Assembly: GCA_965279375.1 (NCBI GenBank)
Contig: OZ257156.1
Location: 1,952,001-2,016,000, forward strand
DNA from: Gemmatimonas sp.
GTDB taxonomy: Bacteria; Gemmatimonadota; Gemmatimonadetes; Gemmatimonadales; Gemmatimonadaceae
Direction of reading: 5' to 3'
DNA: 64,000 bases
Positions 27,100 to 44,110 of the stretch are shown one piece after another (the first letter of the stretch is position 1; each line of letters starts with the position of its first letter). The notes under the pieces were generated by a model. It ran no database searches. It worked only from the letters and a program-made list of their open reading frames with translations, and had not been told where the DNA came from. A program made the translations under genes and the position numbers.

Positions 27100-29349
27100 A
27101 TGCGCATCGTTCTGAAGTACAGTGACATTAAACGGAAGCAGTTCGTACCGCAGCAGACTCGACGCGCCGGATACATCGGTGTCTCAGGCGCAGCGTTCGT
27201 AGCACTGCTCGCGGCATCTCTCGCCACTCCCGCTGTGGCAGCGGCGCAGGGCGTACGTTTCACGCTTTCTCCCGCCGCCGAGTATACGTGGTGGGACAAG
27301 TCACTGGGCCTCAAGGATGGTGAGCTCCTTGGCGGTCGCGTGGGCGCAGACTTCGGCTCGCTGCTCTCGGTCAGTGGGTACTTTCACACGCGCGGCGGGC
27401 TCGGCGTGCAGCGCGACAGCATCGGCCCGGTCGGCGGCGTGCTGCCGTCACGCTCGAACAAGACCGATGTTGCGACGTATGGCATCAATCTCGCGCTTCG
27501 ACTCAGTGCAGCGCGCTTCGCACCGTTCATCTCCGCGGGCGCCGGCGTCATTCGATTCGATCCCGACAGCGCCAAACGCATCGAACAGATCAACTACCGC
27601 TACGGCGGCGGATTCCACTATGACATGACGCCGAACATTCGCGCGATGGCCATGGTGGAGGATTCGCGGTTTCGCCTCGCTCCGAACGCACTGTTTCGCG
27701 TGCCTTCCACGACCGTTGGTGGAGCCGGCAGCGACAAGCAGACGACGCGCAGCAACTGGGTGGTGAGCGCTGGACTGGGCATCGCCGTTGGCGGCTCGCT
27801 CGACGGCGTCGATCCCGAAGCAGATCGCTGGTCGGTCGCGTCGATTCCCGTGGAAGCGTTCGCGGGTCGCATCGAGTTTGATGATGCAACGCTGCCGCGG
27901 CAGGCGTTTGCCGGTGTGCGCACCGGTATCGACGTTGGCAACTACGTCGGCCTTCGCGGCTTCTACTGGCAGGGACGCACCGGGGATCTGCGCAACAAGC
28001 AGCAGCTCAACGGCTACGGCGGCGAAGCGCAGTTCAATCTCAATGCATCGCGTGGACCGGCTCCATTTCTGATTGTGGGTGCTGGGCGGCTGGACTTCGA
28101 GAAGGATTATCGCGACAGCCAGGGGCGCACACGCGCCGACGAAACGGCGCTGATCCTTGGCGGCGGCATCGGCATCCGGCTGTCGGACTCGTTTCGACTG
28201 AATGCAGCGGCGCGCGACTATGTGCGTGGTCCGCAGCAGCTCGACAGCATCTCCGGGCTCAAGCAGTTGAGCAACAACTGGATGTACAGTGTGGGGATCG
28301 GATACAGCATCAATCGGTCGCGCCGCGCGGCCGCGCGTCCGAAGCCGGATCGAGACGCGGATCGCTACGCCGATCGCAACGCCGATCGCGACGATGCACG
28401 CGATGGGGCTCGCATGCGAGATCGCGATTCCTCCTACACCGCGGGTGCAGCGCGTCGCGATGGTATGCGCGCGTCGCCATCCCGCGCCGCCAATGATTCT
28501 GCGGCTCGCGCAGAACGTGAGCGGGCGGCTACGGCCGTGCGAACCATCACACTCCCCGTGCCGCTGGTCGGTGAATTGTACGTGCGCTACGGCGACAGCA
28601 CGTCGCGTGCGATGATGCCCATGCCGATGCATTCGCCAATGAACATGCCCGGGAACATGCCGGGGATGATGCCGGGGATGATGGCGCCTCGCGATACCAC
28701 GGTGCGTGCGGCGACGGCGACGGACTCGGTGGTGCGGGCGCTGCAGCTTCGCATCGAGCAGCTCGAAGTGCGTCTGCGTGAGGCAGAAGCGCGTCGCGTA
28801 CCTCCCACTGCAGCAGCACCCGCGACGCCGTCGGTCGAGCCGATGGTCGAGCGTCAGCTCATCGTTCAGATCGATACGGTCGTGCGCCGTGGCACGTCAC
28901 GCACGAACGCGCCGCGCTCAAACTCAGCGACGCAGATCGTGCAGGTTTCTCCCTACGTCGCTGGCTTCGACCAGCTTGTGCTCGGCGTCCAGCTCGACGC
29001 CGGCCCGATCATGGGCATGCAAGCGTTGCGCTTCGTGCCGGACTTCGCGATCGGTCTGGGCTCCGATCCGTCGGTGTCCCTCGCTGCCGGAGCACAGTAC
29101 GACTTCTCCGTCTTGCGGATCGACGAGAAGTCTGCCGTGCGTCCTCACGTGCGCGTTGGACTGGGATTCATCGCGGCCAGTGGTGACCGCGAGTCCCAGC
29201 TCGGAGTGAACGTGGCATATGGCGTGACCTACAGGGGCACAGCCAATGTCAGCGACCCGCGACGGCCTGCGCTGTTCGTGGAGCACCAGGGAATCGATTT
29301 CTTCTCGACGAATCGCTTCCTGGTCGGAATGCGGTGGCAGGTTAGGTAA
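27100..29349 (+). CDS. Outer-membrane protein with multiple predicted beta-barrel domains
   Basis: Signal peptide ending AAAQ; two similar amphipathic-strand domains (PFISAGAG / PFLIVGAG; NWVVSAGLG / NWMYSVGIG), low-complexity and coiled-coil linker, third strand-rich domain. Confidence 0.75.
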   Translation: MRIVLKYSDIKRKQFVPQQTRRAGYIGVSGAAFVALLAASLATPAVAAAQGVRFTLSPAAEYTWWDKSLGLKDGELLGGRVGADFGSLLSVSGYFHTRGGLGVQRDSIGPVGGVLPSRSNKTDVATYGINLALRLSAARFAPFISAGAGVIRFDPDSAKRIEQINYRYGGGFHYDMTPNIRAMAMVEDSRFRLAPNALFRVPSTTVGGAGSDKQTTRSNWVVSAGLGIAVGGSLDGVDPEADRWSVASIPVEAFAGRIEFDDATLPRQAFAGVRTGIDVGNYVGLRGFYWQGRTGDLRNKQQLNGYGGEAQFNLNASRGPAPFLIVGAGRLDFEKDYRDSQGRTRADETALILGGGIGIRLSDSFRLNAAARDYVRGPQQLDSISGLKQLSNNWMYSVGIGYSINRSRRAAARPKPDRDADRYADRNADRDDARDGARMRDRDSSYTAGAARRDGMRASPSRAANDSAARAERERAATAVRTITLPVPLVGELYVRYGDSTSRAMMPMPMHSPMNMPGNMPGMMPGMMAPRDTTVRAATATDSVVRALQLRIEQLEVRLREAEARRVPPTAAAPATPSVEPMVERQLIVQIDTVVRRGTSRTNAPRSNSATQIVQVSPYVAGFDQLVLGVQLDAGPIMGMQALRFVPDFAIGLGSDPSVSLAAGAQYDFSVLRIDEKSAVRPHVRVGLGFIAASGDRESQLGVNVAYGVTYRGTANVSDPRRPALFVEHQGIDFFSTNRFLVGMRWQVR

Positions 29350-32025: not shown

Positions 32026-34894
<2,869 letters not shown>

Positions 34895-34918: not shown

Positions 34919-35578
34919 ATGGTTCGCGCGCCCCACGTCAAAATCTGCTGCATCTCCAGCGTAGCCGAAGCCGCGCTGGCCATCGACGCGGGAGCCTCCG
35001 CACTCGGCCTCGTCTCGGCGATGCCCAGCGGACCCGGTGTCATTGATGATGCGCTGATCGCCGAGATTGTGGCGACCGTACCGCTGCCGATCGCGACCTT
35101 CCTGCTCACGTCGCGGCAGAACGCCGCCGACATCGCGGAGCAGCACGCGTCGATCCGATCGAGCACGATTCAGCTGGTGGATCACGTGGCCGAAGACGAA
35201 CTGCGTGCGCTGCGACGACTACTGCCCGGCGTGAAGCTGGTGCAGGTCATCCACGTGACCGACGAGGACTCGGTCGCGGAGGCAGGCGCCGTGGCGCCGT
35301 ATGTGGACGCGATTCTGCTAGACTCGGGGAATCAGAAGCTGGCCGTGAAGGAGCTGGGAGGCACGGGCCGCACGCACGACTGGACGTTGAGCCGACGCAT
35401 CCGCGACACGGCTGGGGTGCCGATCTTCCTGGCGGGCGGGCTGCACGCCCGGAACGTGGCGGATGCGATCGCGACCGTGGCGCCCTTCGGGCTGGACCTC
35501 TGCAGCGGGGTGCGGACCGGCGGCCGCCTGGACCCAGCCAAGCTGGACGGTTTCATGAAGGTCGTGCGCGGCGCTTGA
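34919..35578 (+). CDS. trpF: Phosphoribosylanthranilate isomerase family protein
   Basis: VKICC, LLDS, GGTGRTHDW, LAGGL..NV, DLCSGV. Confidence 0.8.
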   Translation: MVRAPHVKICCISSVAEAALAIDAGASALGLVSAMPSGPGVIDDALIAEIVATVPLPIATFLLTSRQNAADIAEQHASIRSSTIQLVDHVAEDELRALRRLLPGVKLVQVIHVTDEDSVAEAGAVAPYVDAILLDSGNQKLAVKELGGTGRTHDWTLSRRIRDTAGVPIFLAGGLHARNVADAIATVAPFGLDLCSGVRTGGRLDPAKLDGFMKVVRGA

Positions 35579-35625
35579 CATTTCGGGTGAACTGTTGAAA
35601 AATCAACACAGTTGAAATTTCAGCA
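35575..35625 (+). promoter_or_regulatory. blaI promoter with two tandem palindromic operators
   Basis: TTGACA 35575-35580, 17 bp, AAAAAT; operators TGTTGAAAAATCAACA 35593-35608 and AGTTGAAATTTCAGCA 35610-35625. Confidence 0.8.
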
Positions 35626-35670
35626 GGTGAGGCGCCCGCGCCTCACGACCCCAACACGCCGGACGCACCG

Positions 35671-36063
35671 ATGGCCCAGCCGAGCCCCCACGAAGACCTG
35701 TCCCGCCGCGAACGGCAGGTGATGGACATCCTGCACCGGCGTGGCGAGTCCACGGTCGCCGAGATCATGGCTGATCTCCCGGACCCGCCGACCTATTCGG
35801 CGGTTCGGTCGATTCTGCGCATCCTGGCCGAAAAGGAGCGGATCGAGTTCCGCGAGGACGGTCCCCGCTACGTGTACTATCCGGCCGCGCCGACTGAGCG
35901 CGCCCAGGCCGACGTGCTGGAGCATGTTGTCCGCACCTATTTCGCCGGTTCGACGGAGCACGCGGTGACCGCGCTGCTGCGCATGTCCGACGCCGCGCTC
36001 AGCGAGCCGGAGCTCGCGCGACTGCGAGACCGGATCAACGCCGCCCGCCAGACCGGGAGATAG
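35671..36063 (+). CDS. BlaI/MecI/CopY-family repressor
   Basis: LSRRERQVMDIL, TYSAVRSILRIL, YVYYP, FAGS motifs; directly upstream of an M56 peptidase. Confidence 0.93.
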   Translation: MAQPSPHEDLSRRERQVMDILHRRGESTVAEIMADLPDPPTYSAVRSILRILAEKERIEFREDGPRYVYYPAAPTERAQADVLEHVVRTYFAGSTEHAVTALLRMSDAALSEPELARLRDRINAARQTGR

Positions 36064-36068
36064 TCGCC

Positions 36069-38354
36069 ATGCTCGCATTCTCTGCTTCTCCGGCCGCGCT
36101 GCTGTTGGCCAAGGCGACAGTGCTCTTGGTGGTGGCCTTCGCGGCGACGCGCGTGATGTCACGCGTGTCGGCCGTCACGCGGCATACCGTCTGGCTCGTG
36201 TCGATGTCGGCACTGCTGCTCATTCCGGCCATGTACGCCCTGACGCCGCTGCGCCTTCCCATTCTACCGGCGCAGCTGCTCGGACAATTGCCGGAGCAGT
36301 GGCAGAAGCAGAACGCGCCCTCTGCTGTGTCGGCGAATAGCGCACTCCGCGGCGTGAAGAGCGACGTGGCAGTCTCCACACGCGCGCTCGACGCGTCGGG
36401 TGATGCGGGCGTGCTCCGCGAAACACGCGATGCGTCCGGTCAGCTGTTGACGCAGGAGCTGCGTGGCACGGACGAACAGCGCTCGTCGACGACGCCGGGC
36501 ACCGCCGCGCCGACATGGACGTGGTCGCGCGCCGTGACGACGATGCTGGTGATCTGGCTGGTGGTCGCCGCGGCGCTCACACTCTGGTTGTGCGCCGGGC
36601 TGCTGATGGTGCGTCGGATCGTGCGACGCGCGTCATCCGTGGATGACGCGGAGTGGACCGGCGCCCTGTATGAAATGGCAGATCGCATGGGACTCGAACA
36701 CGCGCCGACCGTGCTGCGCAGCGAGGAGATCACGATGCCGTTCGCGTGCGGCTTCCGTCGACCGATGATCGTGCTACCGGCCGAGTCGGCGGCTTGGACG
36801 GCCGATGAGCGCACCGCCGTGTTGTTGCACGAACTTGCGCACATCAAGCGCCGCGACATCGTCGCGCATACGCTGAGCCGCATCACCTGCGCGCTTTACT
36901 GGTTCCATCCGCTCGTTTGGACGGCCGCGCGGCGTCTCCGCGCCGAAAGTGAACAAGCCTGCGACGATCTCGCGCTACTCTCGGGCGCGCGGGCGAGTGA
37001 CTACGCCGAACATCTTCTGGAAATCGTCACGCGCGTAAAGCACCGGCGTACGCCGTCGCTGGCGATGGCGATGGCGACGCGCTCGGAGTTCGAGGGACGC
37101 ATGCTGGCCATTCTGGATCCGGAGCGCCGCCGTCGTGGTCCGTCGCGCATGCAGTCCGCAACGCTCGTGGCATCGCTGTTGATGCTGACCGTCGTGGTGG
37201 GACTGGCCACGCCCGCCGCGTCGCGCGCCGCTGAACCGAAGCAGGCCGCACGCCTGCGTGATTCCTTGAGTCAGGACAGCACGTCGTCGGCTCGCGTTGC
37301 ACGCTCGCCGCGCCCGGCCAGCGGTGCGGACTCGGTCGTGAACGCGCCAGTGTCAGCAGCGTCAGCGGCGCCTGCATCGATGCCCGTGCAACCACCGGAA
37401 CCGGCGGCCAACCCAGTGGCGCCGCGCGGCATCAGCACGCTGATGTCTGATGGACGGGGCAAGGAAGAGCGTGCCTTTGATCGCGCAGAAGTTCGGCAGG
37501 CTGATCGTGAAGCCGAACGGGCCGGCAAGGCGATGGTCTCGGCGCTGCTGTCGGGTGTGAGCGCGATGCTCGATCGCGCGCCGGCGGCTGTTCCCGGCAC
37601 CAAGCGCGACAGCAGCGCCCGTGTAGCGACGCTGTGCACTGTCCTCCGCGCCGATGCCAACGCAGAACTGCGCCGTGTGTCGGCGTGGGGCCTCGAGAGC
37701 TTCATCACCGAGCCCGCCGCGGTTGAGGCGCTTGTGCAGGCGCTTCGCCGAGACTCCGACCCGTCGGTGCGTGAGATGGCGGCGTGGGCACTGTCCTCGG
37801 CCGACCCCAACGCGATCGTGCGGACCGCGCTGATTGCCAGCGCGCGCAGCGAACAGTCGCCGCTCGTGCTTCGCAGCGTCGTCCGCGCACTCGGCGAGCA
37901 GTCTGCGTCCAACGATCAGGGTGTGGTGGACGCGCTCGTCGCCGTGCTGGAGGCGCGAGGCGCCGGCAACGCATCGCTCCGTGAGATAACCGCGTGGGCG
38001 TTTGGGAACGTTGCGCCGGCGCGTGCACCTTCGGCGCTGATCGCACTATTGCGCGATCCCGAGTCGAGCGTGCGCAAGACGACGGCGTGGGCACTGCACG
38101 AGACGGAAGACGCGCAGGCCGTACCGGCGCTGGCCGAAGCCATCCGCGTGGAGTCGAGTCGCGACGTACAGCAGGCGATGGTTAGGGCGCTGGCGTCGAT
38201 GGGCGAGCCGGCCGTCCCCGCACTGACAAAGCTGATCGATGACAAGGACGCGGCAGTTCGCGCTCAGGCCATTCGCGCACTCGCCGGCACCCAGATGGCC
38301 GGCGGCTGGCCGATGCCACGTCCCGAGCCGCGCCCGTTCCCGGACAACAAGTAG
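36069..38354 (+). CDS. BlaR1-like M56 metallopeptidase with C-terminal HEAT repeats
   Basis: TM segments, HELAH, YWFHPLVW, EQACD; Ser/Ala/Pro linker, then VR..AWAL repeats. Confidence 0.93.
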   Translation: MLAFSASPAALLLAKATVLLVVAFAATRVMSRVSAVTRHTVWLVSMSALLLIPAMYALTPLRLPILPAQLLGQLPEQWQKQNAPSAVSANSALRGVKSDVAVSTRALDASGDAGVLRETRDASGQLLTQELRGTDEQRSSTTPGTAAPTWTWSRAVTTMLVIWLVVAAALTLWLCAGLLMVRRIVRRASSVDDAEWTGALYEMADRMGLEHAPTVLRSEEITMPFACGFRRPMIVLPAESAAWTADERTAVLLHELAHIKRRDIVAHTLSRITCALYWFHPLVWTAARRLRAESEQACDDLALLSGARASDYAEHLLEIVTRVKHRRTPSLAMAMATRSEFEGRMLAILDPERRRRGPSRMQSATLVASLLMLTVVVGLATPAASRAAEPKQAARLRDSLSQDSTSSARVARSPRPASGADSVVNAPVSAASAAPASMPVQPPEPAANPVAPRGISTLMSDGRGKEERAFDRAEVRQADREAERAGKAMVSALLSGVSAMLDRAPAAVPGTKRDSSARVATLCTVLRADANAELRRVSAWGLESFITEPAAVEALVQALRRDSDPSVREMAAWALSSADPNAIVRTALIASARSEQSPLVLRSVVRALGEQSASNDQGVVDALVAVLEARGAGNASLREITAWAFGNVAPARAPSALIALLRDPESSVRKTTAWALHETEDAQAVPALAEAIRVESSRDVQQAMVRALASMGEPAVPALTKLIDDKDAAVRAQAIRALAGTQMAGGWPMPRPEPRPFPDNK

Positions 38355-38361
38355 TCGCTTT

Positions 38362-38405
38362 CGCAGGAAACACGCAGGAAACACGCAGGAAACACGCAGG
38401 AAACA
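38362..38405. repeat. Tandem repeat, 4 x CGCAGGAAACA
   Basis: Four perfect 11-bp units plus a degenerate fifth, starting 7 bp after the M56 stop. Confidence 0.95.
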
Positions 38406-38453
38406 CACAGTACACGATCGGACGCATCTCGCGTCCCTTCGTTTGGCTTCGTA

Positions 38454-38469
38454 TGCTGAAATTTCAACA
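38454..38469. promoter_or_regulatory. Third copy of the putative BlaI operator
   Basis: TGCTGAAATTTCAACA; 38454-38468 is the exact reverse complement of 35611-35625; overlaps -10-like TATGCT. Confidence 0.78.
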
Positions 38470-38499
38470 CAGAGGCCCGATGCGGGCCGGAGGTGCGTG

Positions 38500-39927
38500 A
38501 TGACGCGATGGACAACGGTGGTAGCGATGTCGCTCGGGATGGCGTGCTCGAGCGAAGGGTACGCGGGTGAGCGCAGCAGCATGAGCATCCCCGCAGTCAT
38601 CGATGTGGAAGCGGTGAGTGCGGCGACGGATGGACGGCGTGCGCTCGATGTCTCGGCGGTGTTGTCGGCGGCGCGGGGCGTCGCGCCGACAGTTTGCCGC
38701 CTCGCTGCGGAATCGGTCACGAGCAGCGGATGGTATCGCGCCGGTAGCGACGCACCCGTCACGCCACTCTCGAGCAGCGCCGCCGACCTCAGTTCGTCAG
38801 AGGCCAGCACGGAGGACGATGACCGCTCGTCACGAACGCTCGTTTCGGCCGACGTCGATCGACTCCTGACCGAACTGTCCAACGACGATCTCTGTGTGCG
38901 CGAACTGTCGGTGCGCCTGCTCGCCACCGACCGTCGTGAGACGATCGTGCGTGCGCTGGCTGATCGGCTGACCGCACGCGACTCGGTGGTGCGCGCCGTG
39001 GCCGCGTTCGGCGCTGGGTTGATTGCACGGGATGGCGCTGCTGCCGCACTGACCGCCACGTTGCGCGACGCCGCTGCCTCCGTGCGCGCCAACTCCGCGT
39101 GGGCACTCGGCCGCATCGAGGATGGCAAGGCGCTTGGCGGATTGGAGAACGCGCTGCGCGACAAGGAGTCGATGGTACGTAGGGCCGCCGTCGTCGCCCT
39201 CGGGCAGATCGACTCCACACGATCGGTGCAGGCCTTGGAGCGCGTGCTCACGGAGGACGACGTGGCGTCGGTCCGTCGTGTGGCCGCGTGGGCGTTGGGT
39301 GAGATCGGCGCGCGTCAGTCTGCGCCGGCGCTCGCCCGTGCACTGCAGCGCGACAGCGATGCGCGTGTTCGCGAAATGTCGGCGTGGGCGTTGGGCGACA
39401 TGGAAGCCACCGAGGGAATCCAGGCCCTGCAGTCGGCGTTGCAGAATGATGCGTCGACGGCAGTGCGCGAGACGTCGGCGTGGGCGCTGGGCGAGATGGA
39501 GTCGTCGTCTTCCGGCGGTACGCTGGCGGACGCGTTGGCGAGCGACTCCAGCGTTGCCGTGCGGTCGGCGTCTGCGTGGGCGCTTGGGCAGATAGAGTTG
39601 CGTGTGGCCCCCGCCGCGCTCAGTCGTGCGCTCAACGACAACAGCGCCGATGTGCGACTGAGGGCCGCGTGGGCGCTGTCGGAGATCGGTGATGCGTCGG
39701 CCGCGCCGGCTGTCCAGGCTGCACTCGCCAAGGAAACCTCGCGTGATGCGCGCCGAGCATTGCTGCGCGCGCTGGTACGATCAGGTGCGAAGGCGGAGTC
39801 CGTGCTGACCAACCTGCTCACGTCGAGTGACCCGCAAACCCGTGAGTCTGCAGTGCGCGCGTTAGCTGGTCGATCGGGTGTCGATCCGTGGCCCTGGCCG
39901 TGGCCCCGTCCACGACCGTTCCCGTAA
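38500..39927 (+). CDS. HEAT-repeat protein, probable lipoprotein
   Basis: GGAGG RBS; MTRWTTVVAMSLGMAC leader; about 10 repeats of D..A.VR..SAWALG. Confidence 0.88.
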   Translation: MTRWTTVVAMSLGMACSSEGYAGERSSMSIPAVIDVEAVSAATDGRRALDVSAVLSAARGVAPTVCRLAAESVTSSGWYRAGSDAPVTPLSSSAADLSSSEASTEDDDRSSRTLVSADVDRLLTELSNDDLCVRELSVRLLATDRRETIVRALADRLTARDSVVRAVAAFGAGLIARDGAAAALTATLRDAAASVRANSAWALGRIEDGKALGGLENALRDKESMVRRAAVVALGQIDSTRSVQALERVLTEDDVASVRRVAAWALGEIGARQSAPALARALQRDSDARVREMSAWALGDMEATEGIQALQSALQNDASTAVRETSAWALGEMESSSSGGTLADALASDSSVAVRSASAWALGQIELRVAPAALSRALNDNSADVRLRAAWALSEIGDASAAPAVQAALAKETSRDARRALLRALVRSGAKAESVLTNLLTSSDPQTRESAVRALAGRSGVDPWPWPWPRPRPFP

Positions 39928-39961
39928 TCGTGTCTGAACTCACTGCGAACAGAGGCGAGAC

Positions 39962-42712
39962 GTGAACAAGACAGAGACTACGCGTCGGTCAACACGCGTT
40001 GTGATGTGGGCCGGGGTGGTGCTGCCGCAACTGCTGTTGCTCCTGCTGCGTCCGACGGCGGCGCGAGCGCAAGCTGGCGCGCACGCGATCGCCGTCCCCA
40101 CGGCGACCGCGGCCGCACGGCGTGGGGCGATCACGCTGGATGGGCACCTCGACGAAGCGACGTGGCAGGCCGCGCCGCCGGTAACCGAGTTCACGCAGTT
40201 CAATCCCGACCACGGCAAGCCTGCGTCCGAGTCGATGGAAGTGCGATTTCTCTACGATGAGACGGCGCTCTATGTAGGCGCCCGTCTCGGTGATTCGCAG
40301 GGCGCGCGTGGTGTGATGAAGACCGTTGTTCGCCGCGATGCGTTCTTCAACTCGGACTTCTTCGAGATCGTGATCGATGGCTTTCACGATCATCTGAGCC
40401 GAGCATTCTTTCAGGTGAATCCTTCTGGTTCGCGCAGCGACATCCTGGGAACCGGCAACTCCTGCTGCGACGATGGATGGGATCCGGTGTGGGAAGCTCG
40501 CACGAGCGTGGACAGCACCGGATGGACGGTGGAGATGCGCATCCCACTGAGTCAGCTGCGCTTCTCGCGCGATTCGGTGCAGACGTGGGGGCTGCAGATC
40601 CGTCGCTTTCTCAAACGGCGCGATGAAACCGATCAATGGTCGATCTGGGGCCGTCAGGAGGCCGGCGGCCCCGCGCGATTTGGCCATCTCGAGGGGATGC
40701 ATCTCGCGGCGCGGCGCAGGACCGTGGAGCTGTTGCCGTATGCGATGCAGCGCACGGCGAGTCTGCAGGGTGCGCCGGGAGATCCGTTCAAGGCGGGCAC
40801 GAAGCCGTCGGTGCGTGGCGGGATGGATCTCAAGTACATGGTGACGCCCAACCTCACGCTCGATGCCACCGTAAACCCGGACTTCGGGCAGGTGGAGGTT
40901 GATCCCGCCGTGGTGAACCTCTCCGCGTTCGAGCCGTTCTTTCAGGAGCGCCGGCCGTTCTTCGTCTCCAGTTCGGGCGTGTTCGACTTCGGTGACTTCA
41001 ACTGCTTCTTCTGCTCCAATGTCTCGAATCTGCAGGCGTTCTATTCACGACGTGTGGGGCGTGCACCAACGGGCGGCGATCTTGCCTATGCACGCGGCGC
41101 GTACGCGGACATTCCACCAGCCGCCACGATTCTCGGCGCGGCCAAGATCACGGGGCGCACGTCGTCCGGCGTCACGGTTGGCTTGCTCGACGCGGTGACC
41201 GGGCGTGCTGTTGCGGACGTGCGCACGCTGGACGGAGCACGCGTACGACAGGAGGTGGAGCCGCAGGCGAACTATCTCGTTGGTCGCATCAAGAAAGACC
41301 TGCGGCGCGGTGATCTCGTACTCGGCATGATCGGTACGAGTACGTCGCGGCAGCTCGGCGATGCTTTCGCGTCGCGCTTGAGCTCGCACGCTGAGTTGCT
41401 GGGCGGAGACTGGAAGTATCAGTGGAAGTCGCGCACGTACTCGTGGATGGGAAGCGCGGCGTTGACGGGTGTGTCGGGCGACCCGCGGGTGATTTCGGCG
41501 CGGCAGCTCTCGAGTGCGCGCTTCTATCAACGCCCCGATCGACAGCAGGGTGCGAGTGGGTTCTTCGCGTCGCGTCTCGACTCGACGGCCACGGTGATGC
41601 GCGGATACGGCGGCTACACGCGTCTGGCGAAGGACGCGGGCGCATGGCTGTGGGAGCTGGCGATGAATGTGCGCAGCCCCGGTTTCGAGACGAATGACTA
41701 CTCCTTCCTGACGAGCGCTGACTACATCTGGAACAGCGCGAATCTGCTGCGTACGTGGCAGAAGCCAAGGAAGTACTATCGCGATCTGACGTTGATTGCC
41801 GGTACGCAGGTGCAGCGAAACTTCAGCGGCGACATCACCAGCAACACGCAGCAACATGCGTATGCCGGCGGCACGACGCCGCAGTTCTGGAACTGGAACG
41901 TCATCATGATCCGCAGGCCACAAGGCTTGCTGGACGATCGGCTGTTGCGTGGAGGGCCGTCGGTACGGATGCCGGGCAGCACGCTTTTCGGGATGAACCT
42001 GGGAACGGATTCGCGCAAGCAGTGGCGGCTCAGCACTGGTCCGTCGATTTCCACGACCACGGCAGGCGGCTACGAACGCTCCGTCGATCTGACGGTCCGA
42101 CTGCAAGCCTCGACGCGCGCCTTCATCTCGTTCGGGCCGTCGTTCGCGGATTCGTACAACACGTTGCAGTACGTCACGGCGCGTCGTGATCCACTGGCGT
42201 CCACATTCGCCGGCCAGCGCTACCTCCTGGCCGACGTACACCAGCGGCAGCTCGGTCTGGACTCTCGCGTCAACGTCACCTTCTCTCCCAAGATGACGCT
42301 CGAGCTTTATGCGCAACCGTTCTTTGCGAGCGGACACTACGACGCGTTCAAGGAGTTCGCGGCGCCACGGCGCGAGGCGGTGCAGGTGTACGGAAAGGAT
42401 CGCGGGACAGTGCAGCCGGTCGTTGGTGCCGATGGGATCGTGCAGCAGTACGTGCTGGATCCGGATGGCGCGGGTGCTGCGCCGTCGTTCAGTGTGGGCA
42501 ATCCGGACTTCAACTTTCGCTCGCTGCGCGGGAGTGTGGTGTATCGGTGGGAGTATCATCCGGGATCAACACTGTTCTTCGTGTGGACGCAGCAGCGAAG
42601 CGATCAGGCGCCAGTGGGCGACTTTCAGTTCGGACGCGATCGGAATGCGCTGCTGCGAGCAAAGCCGGACAACATCTTTCTCGTGAAAGCGAGTTGGTGG
42701 TTGGCGCGGTAG
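39962..42712 (+). CDS. DUF5916-family outer-membrane protein with N-terminal CBM9-like domain
   Basis: LDGHLDE..W, GWTVEMRIPLSQLRF, LDATVNPDFGQVEVD, FFQERRPFF, C-terminal FLVKASWW. Confidence 0.88.
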   Translation: MNKTETTRRSTRVVMWAGVVLPQLLLLLLRPTAARAQAGAHAIAVPTATAAARRGAITLDGHLDEATWQAAPPVTEFTQFNPDHGKPASESMEVRFLYDETALYVGARLGDSQGARGVMKTVVRRDAFFNSDFFEIVIDGFHDHLSRAFFQVNPSGSRSDILGTGNSCCDDGWDPVWEARTSVDSTGWTVEMRIPLSQLRFSRDSVQTWGLQIRRFLKRRDETDQWSIWGRQEAGGPARFGHLEGMHLAARRRTVELLPYAMQRTASLQGAPGDPFKAGTKPSVRGGMDLKYMVTPNLTLDATVNPDFGQVEVDPAVVNLSAFEPFFQERRPFFVSSSGVFDFGDFNCFFCSNVSNLQAFYSRRVGRAPTGGDLAYARGAYADIPPAATILGAAKITGRTSSGVTVGLLDAVTGRAVADVRTLDGARVRQEVEPQANYLVGRIKKDLRRGDLVLGMIGTSTSRQLGDAFASRLSSHAELLGGDWKYQWKSRTYSWMGSAALTGVSGDPRVISARQLSSARFYQRPDRQQGASGFFASRLDSTATVMRGYGGYTRLAKDAGAWLWELAMNVRSPGFETNDYSFLTSADYIWNSANLLRTWQKPRKYYRDLTLIAGTQVQRNFSGDITSNTQQHAYAGGTTPQFWNWNVIMIRRPQGLLDDRLLRGGPSVRMPGSTLFGMNLGTDSRKQWRLSTGPSISTTTAGGYERSVDLTVRLQASTRAFISFGPSFADSYNTLQYVTARRDPLASTFAGQRYLLADVHQRQLGLDSRVNVTFSPKMTLELYAQPFFASGHYDAFKEFAAPRREAVQVYGKDRGTVQPVVGADGIVQQYVLDPDGAGAAPSFSVGNPDFNFRSLRGSVVYRWEYHPGSTLFFVWTQQRSDQAPVGDFQFGRDRNALLRAKPDNIFLVKASWWLAR

Positions 42713-42739
42713 CGTGCGATTGTTCGAGGGCGACGCCGC

Positions 42740-43324
42740 ATGGTCTTGTCGTCGCCCTCCCTCACACACGTTCACCACATGGACGCTCGACAGAAAGCCG
42801 CGCTGGCGCTGTGGGACTGGGTGGGACAGGCACGTCCGCACTTTGCCGTCGCACCGACTGACGCACAGGAGTCGGTGTGGGACTATCCCCGGCCGCCGCG
42901 CGTGGTGCCCGACACGCGCGAGGTGATCGTGCGAGTTGGTGGCGTGGAGATCATTCGCACAGCACGTGCGCTGCGGCTGCTCGAGACGGCGAGTCCGCCC
43001 TCGTTCTATCTGCCGATGGCGGACGTCATGGCCGGTGCGCTCGTGCCCGCCGCGGGCGCATCGCATTGCGAATGGAAAGGGCGTGCGCGCTACTGGACCA
43101 TCGTGGCGGGCGACATGCGTTTGGAGCGAGCGGCGTGGTCATACGATGCGCCGGCGTCGCCGTACGAGGTGCTGCGTGATCACGTGGCGCTCTATCCTAC
43201 GCATGCCGAGTGCACAGTGGATGGCGAGCGCGTCCGACCGCAGGACGGCGGTTTTTATGGCGGATGGGTGACGAATGAGATTGTAGGGCCGTGGAAGGGC
43301 GGCCCCGGGACCGGCGGCTGGTAG
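42740..43324 (+). CDS. DUF427 (NTP_transf_9) protein
   Basis: ESVWDYPRPP, LETASPP.FY, CEWKG.A.YW, AAWSY, FYGGWVT. Confidence 0.9.
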   Translation: MVLSSPSLTHVHHMDARQKAALALWDWVGQARPHFAVAPTDAQESVWDYPRPPRVVPDTREVIVRVGGVEIIRTARALRLLETASPPSFYLPMADVMAGALVPAAGASHCEWKGRARYWTIVAGDMRLERAAWSYDAPASPYEVLRDHVALYPTHAECTVDGERVRPQDGGFYGGWVTNEIVGPWKGGPGTGGW

Positions 43325-43327
43325 CAG

Positions 43328-44110
43328 TCAGAATCGCAGCGAGAGGCAGCTCAGCCCACCGTCCATCTTGGCGAACTCGCTCATGTCCAGCACTTCGAGC
43401 GTGTAGCCCGCTTCACGCAGCATCGCATGCGTGCGCGGATAGCCGGCGGCGACAAAGATCACATCGTTCACTCGCACGCAGTTGGCCGCGTACTCCTCAC
43501 CAGCGGGAACTCGCAGCACGTCGTAGTCATCGAATGCCGGATTGTCGGCGAGTGCATCGATCGAAATGAGCAGCTCCTCTTCGAGTGCGCAGACGCCGCT
43601 CTTGAGATGCAGAATGCCGGGCGTATTGCGAATGTCCACGACAGACGCCGTGCAGCCGTTCATCGCGAGCCAGTCCACGAGCTGCTGCGCACCATTGGCG
43701 TTGGTGCGGTGAGAAAGTCCGATGAACACATGCGGACCCACTTCGCACACGTCCCCGGCGTCGAGCGTGCCCGGTGCCTCGATCTGCGGCAGTTCAGCGA
43801 AGACCTTTGCGACGGCGTCGCGGATCGCGTCCACTTCGCCCGCGCGGCTCTCTGCTCCGGGACGGGTGAGAATAGCCCCGTCGTCCGGCAGAATGAGCGC
43901 GGTATCCTCGACAAACGTGGAGTCGGGGTAGCGCGGGTCGGCCGGTAGTGTGGTCAGCGCGCAGCCATGGCGCACGAGTGCCGCGCAGTACGCCGCATGC
44001 TGCTTGAGTGCGAGATCCACGTCGGGGGTGCCCAGGTCCATCGTGGTCAGTCCGTCGGCAAAGTTGCGGGCCGGCGGGCGTACGATGGCGTGGCGAAAGC
44101 GAGAAAACAT
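43328..44110 (-). CDS. Dimethylarginine dimethylaminohydrolase (amidinotransferase superfamily)
   Basis: PDSTFVED, RPGAESRAGE, LHLKS, KMDGGLSCLSLRF. Confidence 0.92.
   Translation of the reverse strand: MFSRFRHAIVRPPARNFADGLTTMDLGTPDVDLALKQHAAYCAALVRHGCALTTLPADPRYPDSTFVEDTALILPDDGAILTRPGAESRAGEVDAIRDAVAKVFAELPQIEAPGTLDAGDVCEVGPHVFIGLSHRTNANGAQQLVDWLAMNGCTASVVDIRNTPGILHLKSGVCALEEELLISIDALADNPAFDDYDVLRVPAGEEYAANCVRVNDVIFVAAGYPRTHAMLREAGYTLEVLDMSEFAKMDGGLSCLSLRF

Follow-up and report, generated by a model that had tools for sequence, protein, structure and literature searches.

A BlaI/BlaR1-type gene module with two related HEAT solenoids in Gemmatimonas: a candidate peptide-sensing switch

What might an M56 protease of the BlaR1 type sense when its outer domain is an array of HEAT repeats rather than a penicillin-binding domain? 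The question is raised by a locus within a 64,000-nucleotide stretch of Gemmatimonas sp. contig OZ257156.1 (positions 1,952,001 to 2,016,000; referred to here as the window, to which all coordinates refer unless stated), where genes for a BlaI-type repressor, an M56 protease with a HEAT-repeat C-terminus (M56-HEAT, the sensor) and a separate exported HEAT protein (the free HEAT protein) are followed by a gene for a DUF5916 protein. The first three of these genes form a conserved core. Our best explanation of the whole is a three-gene switch of the BlaI/BlaR1 type with a peptide-sensing HEAT groove and a free HEAT copy that would damp the response, to which we assign a rough probability of 0.45. 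The regulatory skeleton of such a switch is very probable, and the proposal that a peptide displaces the sensor tail is a tentative one. The relevant features are as follows.

35575..35603, forward strand: blaI promoter, sigma70-type (TTGACA, 17 bp, AAAAAT), its -10 element within operator 1
35593..35608, no strand assigned: operator-like palindrome 1, before blaI
35610..35625, no strand assigned: operator-like palindrome 2, 17 bp after site 1
35671-36063, forward strand: blaI, BlaI/MecI/CopY-family repressor, 130 residues; PF03965 match, E 1e-22
36069-38354, forward strand: M56-HEAT, M56 zinc protease, 761 residues; four predicted membrane helices, low-complexity linker, about 8 HEAT repeats, Trp/Pro tail
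38304..38342, forward strand: sensor C-terminal tail W-P-x-P-x-P-x-P-R-P-x-P, present in 117/117 homologues
38420..38444, forward strand: terminator-like GC hairpin and T-rich tract; stem 38420-38436, ending 17 nt before operator 3
38454..38469, no strand assigned: operator-like palindrome 3, before the free HEAT gene
38500-39927, forward strand: free HEAT gene, exported HEAT/alphaRep-like solenoid, 475 residues; Cys66/Cys132, Trp ladder, Trp/Pro tail
39962-42712, forward strand: DUF5916 gene, accessory; CBM9_1 (residues 59-228) and DUF5916, predicted outer-membrane beta-barrel

The conserved core and its predicted operators

Conservation was followed in two locus sets, the first comprising the 80 best of the 280 matches that a scan of GTDB gave, and the second 40 loci chosen for their scores among the 71 genomes with a match, out of 301 drawn evenly from the phylum (35 of the 40 were anchored). 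Paired counts are given for set 1 and then set 2, and only loci with enough flanking sequence are counted. The M56 gene lay upstream of the free HEAT gene in 57/57 and 30/32 loci, and blaI lay upstream in the module in 51/51 and 30/32; the conserved core is three genes, those for BlaI, M56-HEAT and the exported HEAT protein. A preliminary description of this DNA had counted the DUF5916 gene as a further member. The co-occurrence of the first three genes held, but a DUF5916 gene came after the free HEAT gene in only 5/70 and 16/32 loci (three further DUF5916 neighbours were at contig ends or in unanchored loci), and elsewhere the gene next after the core encoded, among other products, a TPR protein, an amidohydrolase, an ABC permease or a member of a family of small exported proteins. 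Two families show the full order of four genes, and a closed genome from this genus (G095, locus L155) contains all four. Judged by homologue names and the titles of records, the HEAT family belongs to Gemmatimonadota; M56-HEAT clusters in which Acidobacteriota is the commonest phylum also exist. A divergent second clade has the same gene trio, with HEAT genes that overlap or nearly abut and with no tail, and DUF5916 was next in 2 of the 4 of its loci that showed a next gene.

Several observations concern the surroundings of the core in individual lineages. In one lineage (L047, L053, L062, L063, L072, L075, L081, L083 and L108), a second blaI and M56 pair lies 1-2 genes upstream of the HEAT module, its sensor being DUF4097 (scanned in L047). 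In one large lineage (L080:1879-2364 and about 17 similar loci), an exported or lipoprotein-like protein of 150-190 residues with no Pfam match is encoded directly after the HEAT gene, and in another lineage a TPR protein occupies that position. The module at L070 is on a 3-kb contig labelled Steroidobacteraceae, and its gap is nearly identical to those of the Gemmatimonadaceae loci L067 and L080; the label is probably a binning error. One apparent sensor-partner fusion, P0123 (1244 residues), was set aside as a likely frameshift artefact, its linker reading through the intergenic operator.

The preliminary description did not include the operator-like palindromes, of which there are three, the hairpin in front of the last of them or the C-terminal tail common to both HEAT proteins. 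The palindromes are of 16 bp, with the consensus GYTGA-W4-TCARC. At least one preceded blaI in 51/51 and 29/30 loci, at least two did so in 49/51 and 19/30, and one was present before the free HEAT gene in 76/77 and 31/34; after the free HEAT gene, a site with at most 2 mismatches was found in only 1/79. The 5.3-Mb genome contains exactly three sites with at most 2 mismatches from the consensus, at 35593, 35610 and 38454, all in this locus, a count that is partly circular because the consensus was derived from these three sites. Two apparent operator misses were due to the search range only (L078) and to a mis-called open reading frame (L048), the site being present in both. Operator-like matches after the DUF5916 start in L135, L136, L138, L144 and L147 were not counted, since they fall within the coding sequence.

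We infer that the palindromes are bound by BlaI, and by position and conservation they fit predicted self-repression by this protein. The putative blaI promoter was the sole promoter-like match in 35400-43400, which is weak on its own, shuffled sequences giving 0.7; TTGAC(A/T) was found 11-14 nt upstream of the first operator in 50/51 and 26/30 loci. In 5/5 tail-less paralogous systems, blaI was preceded instead by TACA-NN-TGTA boxes, described in passages of PMC7253601 as the known BlaI/MecI/CopY box. The present genome has six blaI/M56 pairs, and its five other blaI genes have different AT-rich repeats upstream. One paralogous pair (G000 C1:2329700-2331830), whose repressor is a close relative of BlaI, has three tandem variant palindromes of the TGCT-N8-AGCA type, and similar palindromes also occur before the HEAT gene in L157 and L161.

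The arrangement before the free HEAT gene recurs in orthologous gaps, of which 99 distinct examples were compared. The 3' arm of the stem, at -24 to -18 from the operator, showed a mean pairing of about 0.9 with bases varying between G and C, and a T/C-rich tract followed at -17 to -10; the stem ended 15-18 nt before the operator in 79/99. Two readings of site 3 fit this arrangement, namely a weak internal promoter, with its -35 element in the tract and its -10 element at the right end of the operator, or a weak terminator that would be enforced by bound BlaI. RNA polymerase reaches about 14 nt ahead of the RNA end. At L162, a full TTGACA promoter and two sites occupy the site-3 position, which favours the internal-promoter reading for that lineage. 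On both readings the free HEAT gene appears to be one that the switch induces, and the operator and terminator-like hairpin before it make it a likely BlaI-repressed product rather than an upstream relay. On balance we favour the view that at rest the gene is silent: transcripts begun at the blaI promoter would stop at the hairpin, and BlaI at site 3 would block a weak internal promoter or stall polymerase on the T-tract. In the same gap, four tandem 11-bp units lie at 38363-38406, between the M56-HEAT stop and the hairpin; they were not apparent in the orthologous gaps viewed.

The protease, the repressor and the two solenoids

The preliminary description had identified a BlaI repressor and an M56 protease with an intact HELAH motif and a HEAT C-terminus, and family matches bore this out: PF03965 for the repressor, and for M56-HEAT PF05569 at residues 134-347, HELAH at 254-258 and HEAT_2 from residue 520. 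No transpeptidase family was among the matches listed for M56-HEAT, and the NCBIfam BlaR1 model matched residues 157-387 only, with 106 bits against a cut-off of 400. Residues 149-349 aligned with S. aureus BlaR1 (8EXS) at E 6e-7. The BlaR1 catalytic motifs given in passages of PMC9834060 (H201ExxH, E242xxxD and R294) have as counterparts H254-E255-H258, E295-D299 and R344, which were invariant in 118 aligned sequences, and HExxH..E...D was kept in 117/117 M56-HEAT homologues. By hydropathy, M56-HEAT has hydrophobic segments at 9-27, 40-58, 160-178 and 366-384, and the family average also showed four. By analogy with BlaR1, the HEAT domain, which comes after the fourth helix (366-384), would face the periplasm; this topology and the signal-like N-termini described below support the earlier claim that the sensor faces outward and its partner is exported.

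The BlaI profile matched MecI/BlaI structures at E 1e-13 to 3e-12. Residues A101-L102 aligned on the scissile Asn-Phe pair of MecI (N101-F102, according to passages of PMC9834060), and each was 100% conserved in 76 orthologues. We think three predictions highly likely: that the palindromes are BlaI operators, that the HEAT domains are periplasmic and that BlaI is cut at A101-L102.

The start of the free HEAT gene is most likely the ATG at 38500, with GGAGG at 38489 and homologues of 403-528 residues; on the same two grounds the first in-frame ATG, at 38239, was disfavoured. HEAT_2 matched the protein in 5 stretches. Its model was an all-helical solenoid with a mean predicted local distance difference test (pLDDT) score of 85, built of 31-residue two-helix repeats of the alphaRep type, and its best matches were alphaReps both by sequence (E 1e-88) and by fold (Z 25.3, root-mean-square deviation 2.3 over 244 residues). 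No sign of a lyase or di-iron function was seen in the HEAT proteins, no search aimed at either having been made. A signal-like N-terminus was present in 110/120 free HEAT homologues under a simple hydropathy rule; Cys66 was present in 120/121 and Cys132 in 121/121, which suggests a disulfide. The protein had been called a probable lipoprotein. For the present copy this is possible, Cys16 following a hydrophobic stretch in a non-canonical lipobox, but lipoprotein attachment is no trait of the family, a cysteine of this type occurring in only 14/120 homologues.

The sensor aligned in register with residues 238-469 of the free HEAT protein (39% identity, E 3e-27), and in a quick tree the sensor and free domains grouped by system, with a support of 97 for the tail-less clade. 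These two observations argue that the sensor duplicates the last eight repeats of the very protein that it is predicted to control.

Passages of PMC3754942 list positions 18, 19, 22, 23, 26 and 30 as the variable binding-face positions of alphaReps. In the HEAT proteins described here these positions are conserved, Trp26 most of all: six repeats of the free protein have it at 99-100% conservation, and in the sensor the three Trp repeats that were scored have it at 100%. Glu/Arg was conserved at position 22. Both proteins end in a tail of the form P-W-P-W-P-x-P-R-P-x-P (free HEAT 119/120, sensor 117/117 homologues), and the fraction of Trp at position 26 was 0.90 and 0.85 in tailed proteins as against 0.13 and 0.24 in tail-less ones. 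A class of solo HEAT proteins with an alternating V-x-V-x-P tail retains the Trp ladder. Aromatic ladders bind polyproline-type peptides, and importin-alpha is autoinhibited by its own tail. The Trp/Pro tail, we presume, resembles Pro/Arg- and Trp/Pro-rich antimicrobial peptides. When all six frames of this genome were scanned with the combined tail motif, both halves were found only in the two HEAT genes, and no endogenous mimic appeared.

The solo exported HEAT proteins were seen at L034, L036, L038 and L165, with an alternating Val/Arg/His/Pro C-terminal tail and no blaI or M56 gene. The ladder was complete at L036, L038 and L165, and the genes at L034, L036 and L038 were near fatty-acid-oxidation-like genes.

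A proposed switch and its alternatives

The switch that we favour would operate as follows. Basal transcription would supply BlaI and the sensor and would mostly end at the hairpin, and BlaI would repress its own promoter and the exported HEAT gene. An extended proline/aromatic-rich peptide in the periplasm would enter the HEAT groove of the sensor and displace the tail; the M56 protease would then cut BlaI, and the free solenoid (in this locus also the DUF5916 protein) would be induced. The free HEAT copy would bind the same ligand and so reset the switch. A speculative element of this scheme is that each tail rests in its own Trp-lined groove until the inducer displaces it, by analogy with BlaR1, which passages of PMC9834060 describe as activated when a beta-lactam excludes an extracellular self loop from the sensor. 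Still more doubtful, in our judgement, is the wider form of the idea: a phylum-wide peptide switch of natural alphaRep solenoids that carry their own ligand mimic (the tail), in which Pro/Arg/Trp-rich peptides from damaged envelope proteins, competitors or hosts would push the tail out of the groove and so set off BlaI cleavage, and in which a secreted decoy would be freed by repressor-dependent termination, the weak terminator having BlaI 17 nt beyond it as a roadblock.

Several points weigh against the favoured switch. The two locus sets have some genomes in common and their species are related, and the circularity of the genome-wide operator count has been mentioned. Free HEAT genes without the switch occur at L137, L165 and L034. 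The correlation of ladder with tail comes from two or three lineages, and the L159 sensor keeps the Trp residues and has no tail. In the single-chain model the tail had a pLDDT of 58-60 as against >90 for the repeats, which makes self-docking a proposal only. The hairpin had a stability z below -2 in only 63/99 gaps, and site 3 has a weak -35/-10 signal (TTG in 55/99, xAxxxT in 73/99), the copy in the window being without the final T.

The low confidence of the tail in the monomer model also leaves room for tails that act in trans. In that case the free HEAT protein would bind the sensor, tail into partner groove, as an inhibitor or amplifier, and the signal would be the availability of free partner, as in anti-sigma/partner pairs. 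The near-constant adjacency of the partner gene and the presence of the same tail and ladder on both proteins are consistent with this, and alphaReps are able to bind each other through their concave faces (passages of PMC3754942). However, the partner lies behind a hairpin and an operator, so that little of it would be present at rest, and tail-less systems keep the same gene trio. We regard action in trans as unlikely.

Two further explanations give the DUF5916 protein a part, and its properties have to be set out before they are weighed. Its model (pLDDT 95) had about 24 long antiparallel strands, counted from secondary structure; the sequence shows a signal peptide and a C-terminal aromatic motif. 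Residues 9-212 had the CBM9 fold (Z 19.9, root-mean-square deviation 2.9 over 194 residues); the barrel part matched membrane beta-barrel proteins only, at Z 12-15 and 6-11% identity, the matches being tied and none close, and the PDB held no sequence relative at E up to 1. The model thus supports the earlier assignment of an outer-membrane protein, and the 34-bp gap that had been reported between the free HEAT and DUF5916 genes was found as described (39928-39961). The gap contains no terminator-like site and is without the motif CAACC-N17-RTC, whose shape we take to be that of an extracytoplasmic function (ECF) sigma promoter; the DUF5916 gene is therefore probably co-transcribed here with the HEAT gene. 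Across loci the motif preceded DUF5916 in 14/22, five of the 14 being near-identical kin, as against 2/86 other next genes. An unlinked DUF5916 paralogue of this genome has the motif upstream as well, and 17/19 of the top matches in the genome lay outside long same-strand frames.

No operator was found before core-adjacent DUF5916 copies. These copies fell in several subfamilies, a quick tree giving 5 changes, at least 3 of them forced by well-supported branches, and the link to the core may be either recurrent recruitment or an old link with replacement. The DUF5916 protein is likely an optional, co-induced barrel, often with its own ECF-type promoter motif.

These data bear on the proposal that unfolded outer-membrane proteins, DUF5916 among them, have the free HEAT protein as their chaperone in the periplasm, the sensor detecting their exposed alternating strands and the switch being a side branch of an envelope-stress response. 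DUF5916 follows the core far more often than would be expected by chance from the 12 DUF5916 loci of this 5.3-Mb genome; different subfamilies adjoin the core; an ECF-type motif precedes DUF5916; and the related solo HEAT class has an alternating tail and keeps the ladder. Yet DUF5916 is missing beside the core in 65/70 and 16/32 loci, no HEAT-DUF5916 fusion was found in the 7 long homologues scanned of 150 listed, and the ECF assignment is from motif shape alone. A chaperone role seems to us quite improbable.

The preliminary description had proposed a relay, in which DUF5916 would bind a ligand and hand it on, by way of the HEAT lipoprotein, to the HEAT domain of M56 in a trans-envelope circuit. 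The predicted compartments (a barrel with an N-terminal CBM9 module, an exported HEAT protein and an inner-membrane protease) and the recurrence of the four-gene order in two families would suit such a relay, but other observations weaken it. The barrel is absent beside the core in about half or more of the loci, its neighbouring copies are not one clade, have no operator and often have a separate ECF-type motif, the HEAT gene looks induced rather than constitutive, with its own operator behind a hairpin, and most HEAT homologues are without a lipoprotein cysteine. We consider the relay very unlikely. Equally hard to sustain is a scheme in which BlaI is released not through direct cutting by M56 but by a co-inducer, either a small molecule or a fragment of peptidoglycan, with the HEAT domain serving as a scaffold: an indirect route was once proposed for BlaR systems and the Asn-Phe site is replaced by Ala-Leu here, but the catalytic residues are invariant, the aligned BlaI site is fully conserved with a hydrophobic P1' residue, and passages of PMC9834060 treat the indirect route as superseded and report direct cleavage for S. 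aureus BlaR1.

Some further observations were made in passing. CAACC-N17-GTCYAA-type motifs in non-coding positions of this genome mark a candidate ECF-sigma regulon (G000 C1: 288043(-), 469172(-), 4399483(-), 1726688(+), 1372386(+), 176687(-) and 4873478(+)), and several of them precede genes with signal-like N-termini, including a DUF5916 paralogue. In the window, 33321-34487 encodes a short-chain dehydrogenase, presumably akin to the protochlorophyllide-reductase-like members of that family, and is followed by a thioesterase gene and then a PRAI-family gene that ends at the blaI promoter. The N-terminus of a 749-residue protein encoded at 27100-29349 is signal-like, and the protein has a linker rich in Pro and Met as well as two regions that look like small beta-barrels.

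Relation to known systems

The preliminary description had called the circuit undescribed, and this still appears to be so for the conserved module. No paper on it or on DUF5916 was found; the literature retrieved consisted of general papers or papers on other organisms, and most subscription journals were outside its coverage. Diversity of sensors among BlaIR-like systems is already known, as stated in passages of 10.64898/2026.04.08.717257, according to which a beta-lactam sensor is present in only about 6% of some 15,000 M56 proteins and no ligand can be predicted for the others. Against that background, the present module offers a defined operator, a regulon of one or two genes, a predicted cut site and a self-encoded candidate ligand mimic, which together make the question of the signal directly testable with a peptide and a reporter. 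With such a switch, natural alphaRep-like proteins that are exported would acquire a function, and DUF5916 barrels would for the first time be placed in a context, in a phylum that has been little studied.

The individual proteins have relatives with distinct properties. The HEAT solenoids have the 31-residue two-helix repeat of alphaRep and PBS-lyase HEAT-like proteins (MTH187, YibA, CpcE/F and DOHH), but here they are exported, their binding-face positions are invariant rather than variable, and they have an N-terminal Cys-pair cap and a Trp/Pro tail. The modelled DUF5916 protein is like CBM9 modules and large outer-membrane barrels (MtrB, TonB-dependent transporters and porins) in its CBM9 fold and barrel matches, but it has no close solved relative.

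Among regulatory systems, CenIR of C. difficile, PvmSR of P. aeruginosa (passages of preprint 10.64898/2026.08.03.742534) and mycobacterial BlaIR resemble the module in combining M56 and BlaI proteins with no transpeptidase domain. The most induced target of CenIR is an exported protein, and the outer domain of CenR is largely disordered, in contrast to the HEAT solenoid described here (passages of 10.64898/2026.04.08.717257). In the same source (journal version PMC13492132), a HEAT domain was not found among the domain abbreviations of the figure legend, in the portions of text available or in two supplements, and the passages available do not describe a duplication of sensor and output.

The closest likeness is to BlaI/BlaR1 and MecI/MecR1 of S. 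aureus and B. licheniformis. These also have a PF03965 repressor beside a four-helix M56 gluzincin with HExxH and ExxxD, and tandem palindromes over the repressor promoter. The BlaR1 sensor domain is related to the product that it controls, and the HEAT sensor likewise resembles its presumed product. In contrast, the sensor here has no penicillin-binding domain and consists of a HEAT solenoid that ends in a Trp/Pro tail; in place of TACA-NN-TGTA, which the tail-less paralogous clade has, the predicted operator reads GYTGA-W4-TCARC; cleavage is predicted between Ala and Leu; the host is a diderm; and the presumed target is a HEAT gene that lies in the same direction beyond a hairpin, rather than a divergent beta-lactamase gene. 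All three operator-like sites of the genome precede blaI or the HEAT gene, none of them a gene for a beta-lactamase or penicillin-binding protein. The module would thus appear to work in the manner of BlaI/BlaR1, yet in sensor, target and operator it differs from a beta-lactam-sensing system.

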